In this document: positions 2 to 5,339 of the stretch, piece after piece
Layout: each line of letters opens with the position of its first letter
Position numbering within the stretch: position 1 is the stretch's first letter
IMG/VR virus record: IMGVR_UViG_2681813269_000006
Origin: a virus
Taxonomy: Duplodnaviria; Heunggongvirae; Uroviricota; Caudoviricetes
Length of the DNA: 5,339 nt
Reading direction: 5' to 3' (one strand)
Made by a program: the position numbers and the translations under genes
The notes under the pieces: model-generated
The model's database searches: none
What the model was told of the DNA's origin: nothing
What the model saw: only the letters and a program-made list of their open reading frames with translations

Positions 2-370
2 GGAGTGTCCGTTAAACTCAGGCTACCTCAGTCTGCTGATTTGAGTCGCTACAGTGGCACGGTGGTTAACCGTCCGACGTTTTTTGCTTTTGCAAAAGGC
101 GCGGGTGTGATGGGGGAAGCGGGACCTGAAGCCATTCTGCCACTGCGTCGCGGTGCTGATGGTAAGCTGGGGGGTGTGGCGGATACTGGTGGTTCAGGCA
201 TGGTGATGTTTGCCCCGCAGTACAACATTGAGATCAATAACGATGGCACGAACGGGCAGATAGGTCCGGCTGCCCTGAAGGTGGTTTATGACCTCGGGAA
301 AAAAGCGGCCGCGGACTTTATGCAACAGCAGGCCCGTGATGGTGGCCGGTTAAGTGGAGCATACCGGTAA
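2..370 (+). CDS. H: Tail tape measure protein (gpH-like), C-terminal fragment; 5' end lies upstream of the window (copy 1, diverged type)
   Basis: Frame is open from the window edge to TAA at 368-370. Translation contains the tape-measure-like stretch NRPTFFAFAKGAGVMGEAGPEAILPL and the motif INNDGTNGQIGPAALK, which recurs at the end of the second H-like segment (2839..2886). The stop overlaps the ATG of the downstream M gene (TAATG), the H/M arrangement I recall for lambda. Confidence 0.8.
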   Translation, partial: GVSVKLRLPQSADLSRYSGTVVNRPTFFAFAKGAGVMGEAGPEAILPLRRGADGKLGGVADTGGSGMVMFAPQYNIEINNDGTNGQIGPAALKVVYDLGKKAAADFMQQQARDGGRLSGAYR

Positions 371-699
371 TGGAGACGTTTCACTGGAAAGTGCGCCCGG
401 ATATGAATGTGGTATCAGAGCCGAAAGTGGTGACAGTGAAGCTGGGCGATGGTTATGAACAGCGTCGTGCGGCGGGACTGAATAACCAGTTGTCGACTTA
501 CAGCGTGAAGATACGTGTTCGTAAAGGTGAACACCCATTTTTAAAAGCCTTTCTGGAACGGCACGGTGGCGTCCGCGCATTTCAGTGGACGCCACCTTAT
601 GACTGGAAGCCGATCAGGGTGGTTTGTCGTAAATGGTCGGCAAGCGTGGGGGCGTTGTGGGTAACCATAACGGCAGATTTTGAACAGGTCGTGGCATAG
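370..699 (+). CDS. M: Minor tail protein M, copy 1 (diverged homolog)
   Basis: 109-aa ORF, the same length as copy 2 (2973..3302). By my hand alignment 59 of 109 residues are identical to copy 2, including conserved blocks GDGY, TYSV, HGG, WTPPY and the C-terminal FEQVV. Position directly after the H stop matches lambda gene order. Confidence 0.85.
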   Translation: METFHWKVRPDMNVVSEPKVVTVKLGDGYEQRRAAGLNNQLSTYSVKIRVRKGEHPFLKAFLERHGGVRAFQWTPPYDWKPIRVVCRKWSASVGALWVTITADFEQVVA

Positions 700-703
700 G
701 AGG
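698..703 (+). promoter_or_regulatory. Shine-Dalgarno sequence (AGGAGG) for L copy 1
   Basis: AGGAGG lies 5 nt upstream of the ATG at 709. Copy 2 has no equivalent spacer because its M stop and L start overlap (TGATG). Confidence 0.6.
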
Positions 704-708
704 CTCTG

Positions 709-1407
709 ATGCAGGATATTCCACAGGAAACACATCATGAGACGACACGCCTCACTCAGTCAGCCCAGGTGGTGCTCTGGGAAATCGATCTGACAGAGGT
801 CGGTGGAGAACGTTATTTTTTCTGTAATGAGCAGAACGAAAAAGGTGAGCCGGTTACCTGGCAGGGGCGGCAGTATCAGGCATACCCCATTCAGGGGACG
901 GGATTTGAACTGAACGGCAAGGGCAGTGCTGCCCGTCCGACACTGACGGTTTCTAACCTGCACGGAATGGTCACCGGGATGGCGGAAGACCTGCAGAGTC
1001 TGGTCGGCGGAACGGTGGTCCGGCGTAAGGTTTACGCCCGTTTTCTGGATGCGGTGAACTTCGTCAACGGAAACAGCGACGCCGATCCGGAACAGGAGGT
1101 GATCAGCCGCTGGCGCATCGAGCAGTGCAGCGAACTGAGCGCGGTCAGTGCCTCTTTTGTGCTGGCCACACCAACGGAGACGGATGGCGCGGTTTTCCCG
1201 GGGCGTATCATGCTGGCGAATACCTGTATGTGGACTTACCGTTCTGATGAGTGTGGTTACACGGGCAGGGCAGTGGCTGACGAGTTCGACAAACCAACGA
1301 CGGATATCCGGAAGGACAAATGCAGCAAGTGTATGCGCGGGTGTGAGTTGCGCAACAATACCGGTAATTTCGGCGGTTTCCTTTCCATCAATAAACTTTC
1401 TCAGTAA
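709..1407 (+). CDS. L: Minor tail protein L, copy 1 (about 88% aa identity to copy 2)
   Basis: 232-aa ORF, the same length as copy 2. Preceded by AGGAGG at 698..703 with a 5-nt spacer. The C-terminal cysteine cluster C-x9-C-x22-C-x2-C-x3-C (codons at 1225..1344) is conserved with copy 2. About 28 substitutions and no indels relative to copy 2. Confidence 0.9.
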   Translation: MQDIPQETHHETTRLTQSAQVVLWEIDLTEVGGERYFFCNEQNEKGEPVTWQGRQYQAYPIQGTGFELNGKGSAARPTLTVSNLHGMVTGMAEDLQSLVGGTVVRRKVYARFLDAVNFVNGNSDADPEQEVISRWRIEQCSELSAVSASFVLATPTETDGAVFPGRIMLANTCMWTYRSDECGYTGRAVADEFDKPTTDIRKDKCSKCMRGCELRNNTGNFGGFLSINKLSQ

Positions 1408-1411
1408 ATCC

Positions 1412-2155
1412 ATGACACAGACAGAATCAGCGATTCTGGCGCACGCCCGGCGATGTGCGCCAGCGGAGTCGTGTGGCTTCGTGGTAAGAACGCCGGAGGG
1501 AGACAGGTATCTTCCCAGCGAGAATATCTCCGGTGAGCCGGAGGAACGGTTCCGGATGGCTCCGGAGGACTGGCTGCGGGCACAAATGCAGGGTGAGATT
1601 GTGGCGCTGGTCCACAGTCATCCCGGTGGTCTGCCCTGGCTGAGTGAGGCTGACCGGCGGCTGCAGGTGCAGAGTGATTTGCCGTGGTGGCTGGTCTGCC
1701 GGGGGACGATTCATAAGTTCCGCTGTGTGCCGCATCTCACCGGGCGGCGCTTTGAGCACGGGGTGACGGACTGTTACACGCTGTTCCGGGATGCTTATCA
1801 TCTGGCAGGGATTGAGATGCCGGATTTTCATCGCGGGGATGACTGGTGGCGTAACGGTCAGAATCTCTATCTTGACAATATGGAGGTGACGGGTTTTTAC
1901 CGTGTCGCACTGACAGAGGCACAGCCGGGCGATGTGCTGCTGTGCTGTTTTGGTTCATCGGTGCCGAATCATGCCGCCATTTACTGCGGTGACGGCGGGC
2001 TGCTGCACCATATTCCTGAACAACTGAGCAAACGAGAGAGGTACACCGACAAATGGCAGCGACGCACACACTCCCTCTGGCGTCACCGGGCATGGCGCGC
2101 ATCTGCCTTTACGGGGATTTACAACGATTTGGTCGCCGCATCGACCTTCGTGTGA
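1412..2155 (+). CDS. K: Tail assembly protein K, copy 1; N-terminal JAMM/MPN-like domain plus C-terminal NlpC/P60-like domain
   Basis: 247-aa ORF starting 4 nt after the L stop. It contains HSHPGGLPWLSEAD (H-x-H-x7-S-x2-D, a JAMM signature) with an upstream AESCGF glutamate. The C-terminal half has Cys/His candidates typical of NlpC/P60 (GVTDCYTLF, VPNHAAIY). About 20 substitutions relative to copy 2. The ORF-track start at 1148 is an upstream extension that overlaps L in another frame and is not used here. An internal in-frame ATG at 1556 corresponds to a shorter 199-aa form. Confidence 0.85.
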   Translation: MTQTESAILAHARRCAPAESCGFVVRTPEGDRYLPSENISGEPEERFRMAPEDWLRAQMQGEIVALVHSHPGGLPWLSEADRRLQVQSDLPWWLVCRGTIHKFRCVPHLTGRRFEHGVTDCYTLFRDAYHLAGIEMPDFHRGDDWWRNGQNLYLDNMEVTGFYRVALTEAQPGDVLLCCFGSSVPNHAAIYCGDGGLLHHIPEQLSKRERYTDKWQRRTHSLWRHRAWRASAFTGIYNDLVAASTFV

Positions 2156-2486
2156 AAACGGGGGCTGAAGCCATCCGGGCACTGGCCACACAGCTCCCGG
2201 CGTTTCGTCAGAAACTGAGCGACGGCTGGTATCAGGTACGGATTGCCGGGCGGGACGTCAGCACGTCCGGGTTAACGGCGCAGTTACATGAGACTCTGCC
2301 TGATGGCGCTGTGATTCATATTGTTCCCAGAGTCGCCGGGGCCAAGTCAGGTGGCGTATTCCAGATTGTCCTGGGGGCTGCCGCCATTGCCGGATCATTC
2401 TTTACCGCCGGAGCCACCCTTGCAGCATGGGGGGCAGCCATTGGGACCGGTGGTATGACCGGCATCCTGTTTTCTCTCGGTGCCAG
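1999..2486 (+). repeat. Direct repeat copy A: 488-nt block with perfect identity to 4593..5080 (3' end of K plus 5' 434 nt of I)
   Basis: Base-by-base comparison of the two copies. The last mismatch upstream is at 1998 vs 4592 (G vs A). Identity ends at 2486/5080, where copy A continues into H-like sequence and copy B continues into I. Confidence 0.85.
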
Positions 2487-2976
2487 ACTGCTTAAGCAGG
2501 CAATGGTGGGGATTGTCGGGAGTATCGGCAGCGCCATTGGCGGGGCTGTTGGTGGCGGCGCATCCGCGTCAGGCGGTACAGCCATTCAGGCCGCTGCGGC
2601 GAAATTCCATTTTGCAACCGGAGGATTCACAGGAACCGGCGGCAAATATGAGCCAGCGGGGATTGTTCACCGTGGTGAATTTGTCTTCACGAAGGAGGCA
2701 ACCAGCCGGATTGGCGTGGGGAATCTCTACCGGCTGATGCGCGGCTATGCCACCGGTGGTTATGTCGGTACACCGGGCAGTCTGGCTGACAGCCGGTCGC
2801 AGGCGTCCGGGACGTTTGAGCAGAATAACCATGTGGTGATTAACAACGACGGCACGAACGGGCAGATAGGTCCGGCTGCTCTGAAGGCGGTGTATGACAT
2901 GGCCCGCAAGGGTGCCCGTGATGAAATTCAGACACAGATGCGTGATGGTGGCCTGTTCTCCGGAGGTGGACGATGA
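2053..2976 (+). CDS. Chimeric ORF: tail assembly protein I N-terminal 144 codons fused in frame to a tape-measure (gpH-like) C-terminal 163 codons
   Basis: Nucleotides 2053..2486 are identical to 4647..5080, the 5' part of I copy 2. From 2487 the sequence leaves I and encodes RLLKQAMVGIVGSIGSAIGG...INNDGTNGQIGPAALKAVYDMARKGARDEIQTQMRDGGLFSGGGR, which parallels the H C-terminus at 2..370. It ends with a TGA overlapping the ATG of M copy 2 (ATGA at 2973..2976). Whether it is expressed or functional is unknown. Confidence 0.55.
   Translation: MAATHTLPLASPGMARICLYGDLQRFGRRIDLRVKTGAEAIRALATQLPAFRQKLSDGWYQVRIAGRDVSTSGLTAQLHETLPDGAVIHIVPRVAGAKSGGVFQIVLGAAAIAGSFFTAGATLAAWGAAIGTGGMTGILFSLGARLLKQAMVGIVGSIGSAIGGAVGGGASASGGTAIQAAAAKFHFATGGFTGTGGKYEPAGIVHRGEFVFTKEATSRIGVGNLYRLMRGYATGGYVGTPGSLADSRSQASGTFEQNNHVVINNDGTNGQIGPAALKAVYDMARKGARDEIQTQMRDGGLFSGGGR
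2962..2966 (+). promoter_or_regulatory. Shine-Dalgarno sequence (GGAGG) for M copy 2, embedded in the 3' end of the H-like coding sequence
   Basis: GGAGG lies 6 nt upstream of the ATG at 2973; it encodes the terminal SGGGR of the H-like segment. Confidence 0.55.
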
Positions 2977-3302
2977 AAACCTTCCGCTGGAAAGTGAAAC
3001 CCGGTATGGATGTGGCTTCGGCCCCTTCTGTAAGAAAGGTGCGCTTTGGTGATGGCTATTCCCAGCGAGCGCCTGCCGGGCTGAATGCCAACCTGAAAAC
3101 GTACAGCGTGACGCTTTCTGTCCCCCGTGAGGAGGCCACGGTACTGGAGTCGTTTCTGGAAGAGCACGGGGGCTGGAAATCCTTTCTGTGGACGCCGCCT
3201 TATGAGTGGCGGCAGATAAAGGTGACCTGCGCAAAATGGTCGTCGCGGGTCAGTATGCTGCGTGTTGAGTTCAGCGCAGAGTTTGAACAGGTGGTGAACT
3301 GA
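2973..3302 (+). CDS. M: Minor tail protein M, copy 2 (lambda-like)
   Basis: 109-aa ORF MKTFRWKVKPGMDVASAPSV..., which I recall as matching lambda gpM. GGAGG at 2962..2966 lies 6 nt upstream of the ATG. Its stop overlaps the L start (TGATG at 3300..3304). Confidence 0.9.
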   Translation: MKTFRWKVKPGMDVASAPSVRKVRFGDGYSQRAPAGLNANLKTYSVTLSVPREEATVLESFLEEHGGWKSFLWTPPYEWRQIKVTCAKWSSRVSMLRVEFSAEFEQVVN

Positions 3303-4000
3303 TGCAGGATATCCGGCAGGAAACACTGAATGAATGCACCCGTGCGGAGCAGTCGGCCAGCGTGGTGCTCTGGGAAATCGACCTGACAGAGGTCGGTGGA
3401 GAACGTTATTTTTTCTGTAATGAGCAGAACGAAAAAGGTGAGCCGGTCACCTGGCAGGGGCGACAGTATCAGCCGTATCCCATTCAGGGGAGCGGTTTTG
3501 AACTGAATGGCAAAGGCACCAGTACGCGCCCCACGCTGACGGTTTCTAACCTGTACGGTATGGTCACCGGGATGGCGGAAGATCTGCAGAGTCTGGTCGG
3601 CGGAACGGTGGTCCGGCGTAAGGTTTACGCCCGTTTTCTGGATGCGGTGAACTTCGTCAACGGAAACAGTTACGCCGATCCGGAGCAGGAGGTGATCAGC
3701 CGCTGGCGCATTGAGCAGTGCAGCGAACTGAGCGCGGTGAGTGCCTCCTTTGTACTGTCCACGCCGACGGAAACGGATGGCGCTGTTTTTCCGGGACGTA
3801 TCATGCTGGCCAATACCTGCACCTGGACCTATCGCGGTGACGAGTGCGGTTATAGCGGTCCGGCTGTCGCGGATGAATATGACCAGCCAACGTCCGATAT
3901 CACGAAGGATAAATGCAGCAAATGCCTGAGCGGTTGTAAGTTCCGCAATAACGTCGGCAACTTTGGCGGCTTCCTTTCCATTAACAAACTTTCGCAGTAA
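3302..4000 (+). CDS. L: Minor tail protein L, copy 2 (lambda-like); putative iron-sulfur cluster-binding tail tip protein
   Basis: 232-aa ORF MQDIRQETLNECTRAEQSASVVLWEIDL..., which I recall as matching lambda gpL. Conserved C-terminal cysteine cluster (codons 3818..3937). Confidence 0.92.
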   Translation: MQDIRQETLNECTRAEQSASVVLWEIDLTEVGGERYFFCNEQNEKGEPVTWQGRQYQPYPIQGSGFELNGKGTSTRPTLTVSNLYGMVTGMAEDLQSLVGGTVVRRKVYARFLDAVNFVNGNSYADPEQEVISRWRIEQCSELSAVSASFVLSTPTETDGAVFPGRIMLANTCTWTYRGDECGYSGPAVADEYDQPTSDITKDKCSKCLSGCKFRNNVGNFGGFLSINKLSQ

Positions 4001-4005
4001 ATCCC

Positions 4006-4749
4006 ATGACACAGACAGAATCAGCGATTCTGGCGCACGCCCGGCGATGTGCGCCAGCGGAGTCGTGCGGCTTCGTGGTAAGCACGCCGGAGGGGGAAAG
4101 ATATTTTCCCTGCGTGAATATCTCCGGTGAGCCGGAGGCGTATTTCCGTATGTCGCCGGAAGACTGGCTGCAGGCAGAAATGCAGGGTGAGATTGTGGCG
4201 CTGGTCCACAGCCACCCCGGTGGTCTGCCCTGGCTGAGTGAGGCCGACCGGCGGCTGCAGGTGCAGAGTGATTTGCCGTGGTGGCTGGTCTGCCGGGGGA
4301 CGATTCATAAGTTCCGCTGTGTGCCGCATCTCACCGGGCGGCGCTTTGAGCACGGTGTGACGGACTGTTACACACTGTTCCGGGATGCTTATCATCTGGC
4401 GGGGATTGAGATGCCGGACTTTTATCGTGAGGATGACTGGTGGCGTAACGGCCAGAATCTCTATCTGGATAATCTGGAGGCGACGGGGCTGTATCAGGTG
4501 CCGTTGTCAGCGGCACAGCCGGGCGATGTGCTGCTGTGCTGTTTTGGTTCATCAGTGCCGAATCACGCCGCAATTTACTGCGGCGACGGCGAGCTGCTGC
4601 ACCATATTCCTGAACAACTGAGCAAACGAGAGAGGTACACCGACAAATGGCAGCGACGCACACACTCCCTCTGGCGTCACCGGGCATGGCGCGCATCTGC
4701 CTTTACGGGGATTTACAACGATTTGGTCGCCGCATCGACCTTCGTGTGA
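4006..4749 (+). CDS. K: Tail assembly protein K, copy 2 (lambda-like); JAMM/MPN plus NlpC/P60 domains
   Basis: 247-aa ORF starting 5 nt after the L stop, with the same HSHPGGLPWLSEAD motif and NlpC/P60-like Cys/His as copy 1. The internal ATG at 4150 would give the 199-aa form that I recall as the database annotation for lambda K. The longer form is preferred here because it includes the AESCGF glutamate expected for a complete JAMM fold. Confidence 0.88.
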   Translation: MTQTESAILAHARRCAPAESCGFVVSTPEGERYFPCVNISGEPEAYFRMSPEDWLQAEMQGEIVALVHSHPGGLPWLSEADRRLQVQSDLPWWLVCRGTIHKFRCVPHLTGRRFEHGVTDCYTLFRDAYHLAGIEMPDFYREDDWWRNGQNLYLDNLEATGLYQVPLSAAQPGDVLLCCFGSSVPNHAAIYCGDGELLHHIPEQLSKRERYTDKWQRRTHSLWRHRAWRASAFTGIYNDLVAASTFV

Positions 4750-5080
4750 AAACGGGGGCTGAAGCCATCCGGGCACTGGCCACACAGCTCCCGGCGTTTC
4801 GTCAGAAACTGAGCGACGGCTGGTATCAGGTACGGATTGCCGGGCGGGACGTCAGCACGTCCGGGTTAACGGCGCAGTTACATGAGACTCTGCCTGATGG
4901 CGCTGTGATTCATATTGTTCCCAGAGTCGCCGGGGCCAAGTCAGGTGGCGTATTCCAGATTGTCCTGGGGGCTGCCGCCATTGCCGGATCATTCTTTACC
5001 GCCGGAGCCACCCTTGCAGCATGGGGGGCAGCCATTGGGACCGGTGGTATGACCGGCATCCTGTTTTCTCTCGGTGCCAG
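4593..5080 (+). repeat. Direct repeat copy B: perfect-identity partner of 1999..2486
   Basis: Same comparison as for copy A; offset between copies is 2594 nt. Confidence 0.85.
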
Positions 5081-5318
5081 TATGGTGCTCGGTGGTGTGG
5101 CGCAGATGCTGGCACCGAAAGCCAGAACTCCCCGTACACAGACAACGGATAACGGCAAACAGAACACCTATTTCTCCTCACTGGATAACATGGTTGCCCA
5201 GGGCAATGTTCTGCCGGTTCTGTACGGTGAAATGCGCGTGGGGTCACGCGTGGTTTCTCAGGAGATCAGCACGGCAGACGAAGGGGACGGTGGTCAGGTT
5301 GTGGTGATTGGTCGCTGA
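4647..5318 (+). CDS. I: Tail assembly protein I, copy 2 (complete); N-terminal ubiquitin-like region followed by a Gly/Ala-rich hydrophobic segment
   Basis: 223-aa ORF MAATHTLPLASPGMARICLYGDL...VVVIGR, which I recall as matching lambda gpI. Its start lies 103 nt inside the 3' end of K in a different frame, the known K/I overlap. TGA at 5316..5318 is followed by what should be the I-J intergenic region. Confidence 0.9.
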   Translation: MAATHTLPLASPGMARICLYGDLQRFGRRIDLRVKTGAEAIRALATQLPAFRQKLSDGWYQVRIAGRDVSTSGLTAQLHETLPDGAVIHIVPRVAGAKSGGVFQIVLGAAAIAGSFFTAGATLAAWGAAIGTGGMTGILFSLGASMVLGGVAQMLAPKARTPRTQTTDNGKQNTYFSSLDNMVAQGNVLPVLYGEMRVGSRVVSQEISTADEGDGGQVVVIGR

Positions 5319-5339
5319 TGCAAAATGTTTTATGTGAAA

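Follow-up and report, generated by a model that had tools for sequence, protein, structure and literature searches.

In phage lambda, the tail assembly genes K and I form a pair that Iyer, Burroughs, and Aravind (2006) described in a computational study, with a cut by the JAB domain predicted at the terminal glycine (PMC1779556). This is the work that the initial annotation of the present locus had referred to as pairing a JAB peptidase with a ubiquitin-like protein, and the paper does make that pairing. [quoted passage not shown] A literature search for a primary paper on gpK-gpI cleavage found none, only this summary and an F-pyocin preprint; the cleavage by gpK is reported only in the summary. 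The preprint concerns the F-type pyocin of Pseudomonas aeruginosa, whose PA0640 is a homologous tip plug that loses its N-terminal region ahead of the joining of tip and tube (a "proteolytic checkpoint"); by mass spectrometry, this region is gone in mature particles and kept in stalled tips (bioRxiv 10.64898/2026.02.24.707460). Tip assembly cannot proceed without PA0639, the gpK homologue, which the particles lack, just as virions lack gpK. The pyocin differs in being a tailocin rather than a phage, and the study names no responsible protease. In lambda itself, none of the virion structures shows the gpI Ubl, and gpK is missing from virions (PMC10721106, PMC11101478, PMC12617516).

Beyond these tails, the MoaD, ThiS, SAMP, and CysO Ubls share with gpI the beta-grasp and a "...P-x-V-x-G-G/A" tail, and the JAMM fold and motif of K recur in the PfJAMM1-SAMP2, Mec+/CysO, and Rpn11-ubiquitin systems. 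Unlike these sulfur-carrier and modifier Ubls, that of gpI forms the N terminus of a structural protein, from which it is cast off. It comes with no E1/E2 and no sulfur chemistry, and its second glycine is Ala or Ser. K has an NlpC/P60 domain in addition. The Bil and type II CBASS Cap2/Cap3 systems likewise combine a Ubl with a JAB-family deubiquitinase, and Bil targets the central fibre of the tail tip (bioRxiv 10.1101/2023.09.04.556158); however, both have an E1 and an E2 with which the Ubl is attached to targets, and the Pfam scan described below recovered nothing alike.

In the 5,339-nt stretch of DNA analyzed here (the window), two copies of the lambda-type genes for tail-tip assembly, H (3' end)-M-L-K-I, follow one another in tandem on one strand, head-to-tail, in the order H'-M'-L'-K'-(I::H)-M-L-K-I, with all nine ORFs intact (Table 1). 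The downstream module corresponds to lambda, with window positions 2488 to 5339 matching lambda 12615 to 15465 at 99.2% identity; only 21 nt remain 3' of the I stop, in a region colinear with lambda, where J comes next. In the upstream module, H' is a 97% match to the tape-measure CDS of an E. coli prophage, and over its final 69 aa it shares 52% identity with the C terminus of lambda H. In a search for the parent of copy 1, the best match was E. coli FDAARGOS_944 (97%), which departs from the window past nt 2255, and copy 1 is thus without an exact parent. Positions 1999 to 2486 recur at 4593 to 5080 with 100% identity. A K-type JAB/NlpC peptidase gene lies upstream of both I and the chimera, in agreement with the earlier observation that the K/I pairing occurs twice (K' with the ORF at 2053 to 2976). 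A Pfam scan of eight of the nine long forward-strand ORFs (all but L', which is identical to L at 204 of 232 residues) recovered only tail proteins and the K peptidase domains and no E1 (ThiF/MoeB-like) or E2 enzyme. The locus has the gene order of lambda and its overlap of K and I, and the proteins agree with lambda gpI (TAPI, PF06805) and gpK (TAPK) in domain architecture and catalytic motifs; it differs from lambda by an added upstream, diverged module whose I is cut at codon 144 and fused to H 692-853.

Table 1. Features of the window (primes denote the upstream copy)
Feature	Positions	Strand	Basis or remark
H', 3' end of diverged lambdoid tape-measure gene	2..370	+	Frame enters from upstream of window
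M', distal tail protein, diverged copy	370..699	+	PF05939, E = 6e-39; 59/109 aa shared with copy 2
L', tail hub protein, diverged copy	709..1407	+	204/232 aa identical to copy 2 (PF05100)
K', JAB + NlpC/P60 tail assembly peptidase, copy 1	1412..2155	+	PF14464, PF00877; matches K at 227/247 aa
Chimeric ORF, 307 aa: I(1-144) + Arg + lambda H(692-853)	2053..2976	+	Sequence comparison
Ubiquitin-like beta-grasp of chimera, residues 14-97, identical to that of I	2092..2343	+	Within the 100% repeat
I/H junction: I ends at 2486, filler A at 2487, H begins at 2488	2486..2488	.	In frame, without microhomology
12-bp perfect palindrome CTGCTTAAGCAG, beginning exactly at first H-derived base	2488..2499	.	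One of two 12-bp palindromes in window
M, lambda-type copy	2973..3302	+	PF05939; inside 99.2% lambda match
L, lambda-type copy	3302..4000	+	PF05100, E = 3e-101
K, 247-aa form: JAB residues 3-104, NlpC/P60 residues 111-224	4006..4749	+	Pfam, AF2
JAMM zinc motif H68-S-H70-x7-S78-x-x-D81 of K	4207..4248	+	Glu19 upstream at 4060-4062
Cys121 of K, candidate catalytic residue of the NlpC/P60 domain alongside His187 and His199	4366..4368	+	Invariant in K homologue alignment
I (gpI), tail tip assembly/plug protein, 223 aa	4647..5318	+	Pfam, 8IYK match
Ubiquitin-like beta-grasp of I, residues 14-97, end P92-R-V-A-G96-A97	4686..4937	+	AF2, Foldseek, Pfam, profile alignment to MoaD-related protein
Gly96-Ala97 of I, equivalent in position to ubiquitin/MoaD C-terminal Gly-Gly; preferred candidate cleavage site	4932..4937	+	Conservation, profile alignment
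Gly100-Gly101 of I, GG of the initial annotation, four residues past G96-A97	4944..4949	+	Present
Two Gly/Ala-rich hydrophobic helices (H1, H2) of I	4944..5111	+	AF2 helices 100-129, 136-155
C-terminal plug/beta-augmentation domain of I; missing from chimera	5112..5318	+	PMC10721106

By its motif, Pfam, and fold matches, K is a predicted JAMM/MPN+ metallopeptidase, as had been proposed from its sequence. The Prok-JAB profile (PF14464) scores 52.3 bits against a cutoff of 25, and the profile of the NlpC/P60 (C40) cysteine peptidases scores 48.3 bits against a cutoff of 23. The AF2 model (mean pLDDT, 81) was matched by Foldseek both to the MepS, LytE, and Acd autolysins and to PfJAMM1 (including its SAMP2 complex), Rpn11, CSN5, and AMSH; K also matches PDB entry 2kks (E = 1e-5). 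Both copies have E19 and the H68-S-H70-PGGLPWL-S78-EA-D81 motif, and Cys121 is intact in K'. Across 24 K homologues, E19 is invariant and H68, H70, S78, and D81 are at least 90% conserved. C121, H187, and H199 are invariant in the K homologue alignment, and the NlpC/P60 triad is assigned by this conservation rather than by geometry.

The I protein is identical to lambda gpI (PDB code 8IYK, chain I) at 221 of 223 residues, the differences being A132T and I165T, and matches PF06805 (Lambda_tail_I) over residues 14 to 97 (E = 1e-28; 99.9 bits against a cutoff of 23.8). Its gene does overlap that of the JAMM protein, by 103 nt, or by 64 nt if I begins at Met14, the start in most homologues. The structure prediction that had been suggested as a check on the N terminus returned an AF2 model with pLDDT values of >90 over residues 14 to 92 and a b-b-a-a-b-b topology. 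In a Foldseek search of the PDB, the top 50 matches were all to Ubl, MoaD, SAMP, or ubiquitin structures, headed by SAMP1, CysO, MoaD, Urm1, and ubiquitin (probability, 1.0; target TM-score, 0.68 to 0.75). Thus, as modeled, the N terminus of I is a ubiquitin-like beta-grasp, and the initial annotation was right on this point. PDB chains 9l9p_A and 25vf_9 are two further I homologues that match the Ubl profile. Downstream of the fold, the VAGAKSGG segment (residues 94 to 101) is followed by a Gly/Ala-rich hydrophobic stretch (residues 102 to 150), both as described earlier. H1 and H2 have been put forward as putative membrane-inserting helices (PMC11101478). This Gly-rich hydrophobic linker leads into the TAPI-C plug domain; in the lambda tail tip, gpI residues 135 to 223 are resolved and contact gpJ and gpH residues 818 to 842 (PMC10721106).

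Where the Ubl ends bears on where it would be cut. The initial annotation had it end in Gly-Gly, with K possibly cutting after that dipeptide. The dipeptide is there, at G100-G101, but the beta-grasp ends structurally at P92 and the equivalent of the diglycine is G96-A97. In 51 diverse I homologues, P92 is present in all, G96 in 49, and A, S, or G at position 97 in 48, against 22 for G100, 40 for G101, and 29 for the GG pair. In profile alignments, "FPPVAGG" of 1v8c pairs with "VPRVAGA" of I, and the chain end of 4n6e_B pairs with G96; as the matches of the Ubl to MoaD profiles from the PDB are weak alone (E values of 0.2 to 0.8), we used them, beside the fold search, only for the register of the C-terminal tail. 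From conservation and this register, we infer that a cut directly after G96-A97 is to be preferred over one at G100-G101; the MoaD-type GG aligns to G96-A97, and the assumption of a cut after the GG is unsupported. A cut after Gly100-Gly101, with the diglycine as the recognition element, is nonetheless a possibility that we rate somewhat below even. JAMM enzymes classically cleave behind a C-terminal Gly-Gly, and G101 is fairly well conserved (40/51); against this, a GG between G96 and the first helix occurs in only 29 of 51 homologues, several have no Gly there (GAGK-IGQ, GASKSPVV, and GSKDDVV), and G96-A97 is the structural equivalent of the ubiquitin/MoaD diglycine. Closed-tail gpI is resolved "from position 101 onward" (PMC11101478), in keeping with the G100-G101 site, and this puts the start of mature gpI no later than residue 101; should the model of mature gpI indeed include that residue, a cut after G101 is excluded. 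The G-A/G-G motif of I is present and exposed on cleavage, and nothing points to conjugation of the released Ubl.

We consider it very probable that the trimming of the Ubl off gpI by K, in a duplicated lambda module in which I::H is the by-product of an illegitimate join, explains the locus as a whole. That cleavage occurs and that K performs it are taken from the literature; the protein identities, the fold, the catalytic motifs, and the conservation come from the present analysis, and the exact scissile bond and the acting K domain are deduced. The K/I interpretation itself is already known and not new. On this reading, gpI would enter the nascent tip with its Ubl still attached, and K would act as a nonvirion assembly factor that removes the Ubl, most likely via its JAB domain and probably by cutting directly after G96-A97 rather than G100-G101. 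Removal of the Ubl would then be an assembly checkpoint that lets the tape measure and tube dock.

The Ubl might instead never be removed and stay in the virion as a flexible gpI domain invisible to cryo-EM, given that the cryo-EM papers call the N-terminal domain merely "unresolved." We regard this as highly improbable, as it conflicts with the gpK cleavage in the conference report (PMC12908700) and with the F-pyocin, in which mature particles are without the N-terminal region and stalled tips have it (bioRxiv 10.64898/2026.02.24.707460). Furthermore, the lone gpI peptide detected when lambda virions were examined by mass spectrometry (9.87% coverage) must be the 22-mer at the C terminus, although the Ubl holds several tryptic peptides of 7 to 26 residues.

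A different role for K follows from a speculation of Hor et al. (bioRxiv 10.1101/2023.09.04.556158), in which its JAB domain would be mainly a counterdefence deubiquitinase that strips host Bil-type tags from the central tail fibre rather than a processor of I. Bil does attach its Ubl to the central fibre (J type), with which gpI is in contact. As the main role of K, this appears improbable to us: the gene for a Ubl substrate lies in cis and overlaps K; lambdoid and T1-like phages and F-pyocins all keep K paired with I; PA0639 is needed for F-pyocin tip assembly with no defence system invoked, pyocins not being phages; and gpK is reported to cleave gpI directly (PMC12908700). A counterdefence role and the processing of I by K are not mutually exclusive.

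The second K/I pairing requires an explanation of its own. As stated in the initial annotation, the Ubl of copy 1 is joined to an H C terminus: 144 residues of I are followed, after a single Arg, by lambda H 692-853 with one substitution (M to L). The only Pfam match in the chimera is PF06805 at residues 14 to 97 (102 bits against a cutoff of 23.8), and TAPI-C is missing. The H-derived tail covers the span of gpHC (~690 to 853; extent from PMC12617516), including the helix at 818 to 849 that binds the gpI trimer. We propose that the pairing arose when I codon 144 was joined illegitimately, in frame, to H codon 692, so that a diverged lambdoid module came to abut one of lambda type. The product would keep the Ubl and both candidate cleavage motifs and would have lost the plug domain, the anchor of gpI in the tip; hence, rather than a new functional unit, it is most likely a by-product that is inert or competes mildly. 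The earlier suggestion that K would release the same Ubl fragment from it appears doubtful by analogy with gpI, since cleavage is reported only after gpI engages the tip via its C-terminal domain (PMC10721106), which is absent from the chimera.

Searches for the join elsewhere were negative: megablast against 5,426 complete E. coli genomes and 50,697 phage records did not find the I/H junction, nor did exact-pattern scans of IMG/VR, GTDB species representatives, and JGI metagenome contigs; no match in a tblastn-confirmed IMG/VR search with the junction peptide spans the junction; and exact-protein look-ups found neither the 307-aa nor the 294-aa form on record. The junction is probably a one-off product of illegitimate recombination or an artefact. 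The absence of junction and protein from these collections would fit chimerism of a read or clone, or misassembly of a sample with two lambdoid phages, as would the many odd I ORFs of public draft contigs (internal duplications and L::I, gpA::I, and K::I fusions), some of them probably artefacts themselves. We nevertheless judge an artefactual origin of the tandem arrangement and the chimera unlikely, if well worth bearing in mind, for the modules are head-to-tail on one strand, the join keeps the frame, none of the nine ORFs is disrupted, and the H breakpoint lies exactly at the edge of the 12-bp palindrome, a plausible site of recombination or breakage. Because the junction is without homology, and a repeat-driven misassembly would not make such a join, we dropped repeat-mediated misassembly as the sole explanation.

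A far stronger claim would be that the chimera is real, expressed, and selected as a Ubl-capped copy of gpHC with hydrophobic helices, supplied in trans and uncapped by K or K', that docks on the gpI plug or titrates K. This strikes us as extremely improbable. If true, the chimera would be an alternative means of gpHC loading or a prophage decoy hindering the tail assembly of related phages, and the position of the H breakpoint (692), close to the start of gpHC (~690), would hint that the second peptidase domain of K might process gpH.

More broadly, the K/I pair shows that phages have a checkpoint built into assembly that consists of a Ubl domain and a JAMM "deubiquitinase" and is related by evolution to the processing of ubiquitin in eukaryotes. 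This checkpoint was predicted in 2006 and is now being demonstrated by others, and the window adds nothing fundamental to it. Our contribution is a predicted scissile bond, as conservation across the family and the homology to MoaD and ubiquitin point to Gly96-Ala97 as the canonical end of the Ubl, instead of the more conspicuous Gly100-Gly101. The I::H fusion, if real, also offers a natural construct for asking whether K needs the I plug domain, and hence tip incorporation, to cut. The sole unusual trait of the locus is the doubling of the module, which gave a one-off Ubl fusion to the tape-measure end.

Two further proteins came up in the comparisons. A protein of 2,783 aa with 23 weak matches to I residues 10 to 63 is a translated tandem repeat with superficial similarity and was discarded. 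The other, of 428 aa, is a natural K::I fusion that comprises the full JAB, NlpC, and I regions.

The open reading frame (ORF) listing and comparison with phage lambda showed two tandem copies of a lambda-type tail-tip assembly module in the window, both on the + strand, with the gene assignments borne out by Pfam. Lambda NC_001416 12615-15465 matches window 2488-5339 at 99.2% identity, and lambda 12965-15206 aligns to window 232-2486 at 85%. The 223-aa ORF noticed in the initial annotation is gpI, the tail tip plug protein, with two substitutions (A132T and I165T); its VAGAKSGG motif (residues 94 to 101), the Gly/Ala-rich hydrophobic stretch that follows, and its 103-nt overlap with K were all confirmed, and a match this strong (Pfam, E = 1e-28) is well outside chance expectation.

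Features of the two tail-tip modules (primes denote the diverged first copy)
Feature	Window coordinates	Strand	Domain or note
H' 3' end	2-370	+	
M'	370-699	+	PF05939
L'	709-1407	+	
K'	1412-2155	+	Prok-JAB + NlpC/P60
Chimeric ORF (I::H)	2053-2976	+	PF06805
M	2973-3302	+	PF05939
L	3302-4000	+	PF05100
K	4006-4749	+	Prok-JAB + NlpC/P60
I	4647-5318	+	PF06805
C-terminal tryptic 22-mer of I	5253-5318		residues 202-223

An AlphaFold2 model of I built from 51 diverse homologs has pLDDT values of >90 across residues 14 to 92, with strands at 14-19 and 29-33, helices at 37-47 and 49-57, and strands at 60-64 and 87-92, followed by two long helices (100-129 and 136-155) and a low-confidence C terminus. When this model was searched against the PDB with Foldseek, the top 50 matches were all ubiquitin-like beta-grasp proteins, including SAMP1 (E = 2.5e-4), CysO, MoaD, Urm1, Caldiarchaeum ubiquitin, ubiquitin, SUMO, and NEDD8 (probabilities of ~1.0; target TM-scores of 0.68 to 0.75 for the top, MoaD/SAMP-type matches). 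Hence, the N terminus of I is predicted to adopt the beta-grasp fold, as had been proposed. Both K copies retain E19, H68-S-H70-x7-S78-x2-D81, and C121/H187/H199; across 24 homologs each of these residues is either invariant or conserved at 90% or more. The K model (mean pLDDT, 81) matches NlpC/P60 endopeptidases (MepS, LytE, and Acd autolysins) and JAMM deubiquitinases (Pyrococcus JAMM1 alone and with SAMP2, Rpn11, CSN5, and AMSH). The reading of K/I as a JAB peptidase paired with a ubiquitin-like (Ubl) domain is correct in outline and already known. TAPK was described as JAB plus NlpC/P60, and TAPI as starting with a ThiS/MoaD-like Ub domain whose C-terminal glycine is conserved, continuing through a Gly-rich linker into TAPI-C; the JAB was proposed to free the Ubl domain, probably by cutting at the C-terminal-most glycine (Iyer, Burroughs, Aravind 2006; PMC1779556). 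The locus is a textbook one, its mechanism predicted in 2006 and now under demonstration by others; the gpK homolog PA0639 is essential (F-pyocin study, bioRxiv 10.64898/2026.02.24.707460).

Regarding where the Ubl domain ends, the proposed Gly-Gly terminus held only in part: G100-G101 is present, but the conserved equivalent of the diglycine lies upstream. Among 51 I homologs (34 to 60% identity), P92 is conserved in all and G96 in 49; residue 97 is Ala in 40, Ser in 6, and Gly in 2. G101 is conserved in 40 of the 51 and G100 in only 22; 29 homologs have a GG in the interval from G96 to the first helix, and several have no glycine at all in it. A Ubl-only profile paired 'ihivPvvaGak' with 'LDLFPPVAGGG' in 1v8c, a MoaD-related Thermus protein, and placed G96 (profile position 83) opposite the next-to-last residue of 4n6e_B, a ThiS/MoaD chain of 90 residues; both E-values are weak, and both matches agree with the fold search. 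The segment H89-I-V-P-R-V-A-G96-A97 of gpI lines up position by position with H-L-V-L-R-L-R-G-G of ubiquitin. Homolog conservation, profile, and ubiquitin alignment together place the canonical 'diglycine' position at G96-A97, with G100-G101 falling in the spacer. We infer that the scissile bond lies somewhat more probably after A97, a cut after G101 being a less favored but substantial alternative. The closed-tail structure is stated to resolve gpI 'from position 101 onward' (PMC11101478); this agrees with cleavage before residue 101 and is hard to square with a cut after G101. This refined site prediction is a small new element.

Virion structures resolve only 101/134/135-223 of gpI, and virions are without gpK (PMC10721106, PMC11101478, PMC12617516). 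The published lambda virion mass spectrometry table has a single gpI peptide at 9.87% coverage, and the C-terminal 22-mer VVSQEISTADEGDGGQVVVIGR is the sole predicted tryptic gpI peptide giving that value. No Ubl peptides were reported there, though the domain has several tryptic peptides of 7 to 26 residues.

The 307-aa chimera consists of I(1-144), an Arg, and H(692-853), joined in frame as ...CTCGGTGCCAG, one filler base (A), and CTGCTTAAGCAGG..., with no microhomology at the I/H junction. The first H-derived base is also the first base of a 12-bp perfect palindrome, CTGCTTAAGCAG (2488-2499; AflII site inside). The window has two such palindromes against ~1.4 expected by chance; this one may be a hairpin-prone site at which illegitimate recombination broke the DNA. 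Copy 1 is mosaic: its identity to copy 2 is 56 to 96% up to nt 1998 and 100% over 1999-2486; this 488-bp block (identical to 4593-5080) comprises the K 3' end and the first 144 I codons, including the non-lambda A132T codon, a pattern consistent with mosaic exchange between the copies or with gene conversion. The closest natural relative of copy 1, E. coli FDAARGOS_944 (97%), diverges past nt 2255. Searches of E. coli complete genomes, phage records, IMG/VR, GTDB representatives, and JGI metagenomes, together with exact-protein look-ups, recovered neither the junction nor the chimeric protein. The most economical history is that lambdoid genomes recombined illegitimately, either with one another or internally; an artefactual origin of the tandem structure and chimera is a less likely but substantial alternative.

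The breakpoint (window 2488; lambda H codon 692) lies at about the start (~690) of gpHC, the C-terminal fragment remaining when gpH is cleaved to gpH*, a cleavage whose site and protease PMC12617516 reports as unknown. A hydrophobic segment predicted weakly at 691-712 also starts there (PMC12617516). We treat both proximities as coincidence.

The chimera retains the Ubl domain and both candidate cleavage motifs. It lacks I residues 145-223, with which gpI inserts into gpJ by beta-augmentation and which form the plug (PMC10721106). Since gpI cleavage as reported depends on incorporation into the tip (PMC12908700, a conference report), it is uncertain whether the chimera would, as suggested earlier, yield an identical Ubl fragment. 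The candidate I::H fusion is unique in the collections searched and, like the site prediction, a small new element.

Many rearranged I ORFs occur in public records (proteins P0001-P0007, P0003, P0009, P0034, P0026, P0049, and P0301; locus L002, 6001-6873), including internal tandem duplications of the Ubl/linker and L::I, terminase-gpA::I, JAB::I, and full K::I fusions; in contig GCA_005381225.1 BDKX01000007.1, K is also elongated and H is split. Either noise in assembly or a real instability of the region may lie behind these rearrangements. P0169 (2,783 aa), which in the representative search matched I residues 10-63 weakly in 23 places, proved to be a translated tandem repeat (motif FGDFENLSRRMDLKVFADAIRASIREQL) rather than a poly-Ubl protein, and we discount it as a spurious hit.

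More than one start is plausible for I (window 4647-4748). Lambda uses Met1 (223 aa), and in the window a Shine-Dalgarno-like GAGAGG stands 11 nt upstream of this ATG. Most homologs start at the position equivalent to Met14; the K/I overlap may therefore really be 64 nt. Many pipeline annotations start I at Val34 (GTG inside a GTGA start/stop overlap with K), which would remove beta-grasp strands 1 and 2, predicted at pLDDT >90. K in NC_001416 (L001, 4277-4876) is annotated as 199 aa from Met49, dropping the first 48 JAB residues, catalytic Glu19 among them. The 247-aa ORF (5' region, window 4006-4152) begins 5 nt past the L stop, is conserved in both copies, and is the form in current E. coli RefSeq annotation.
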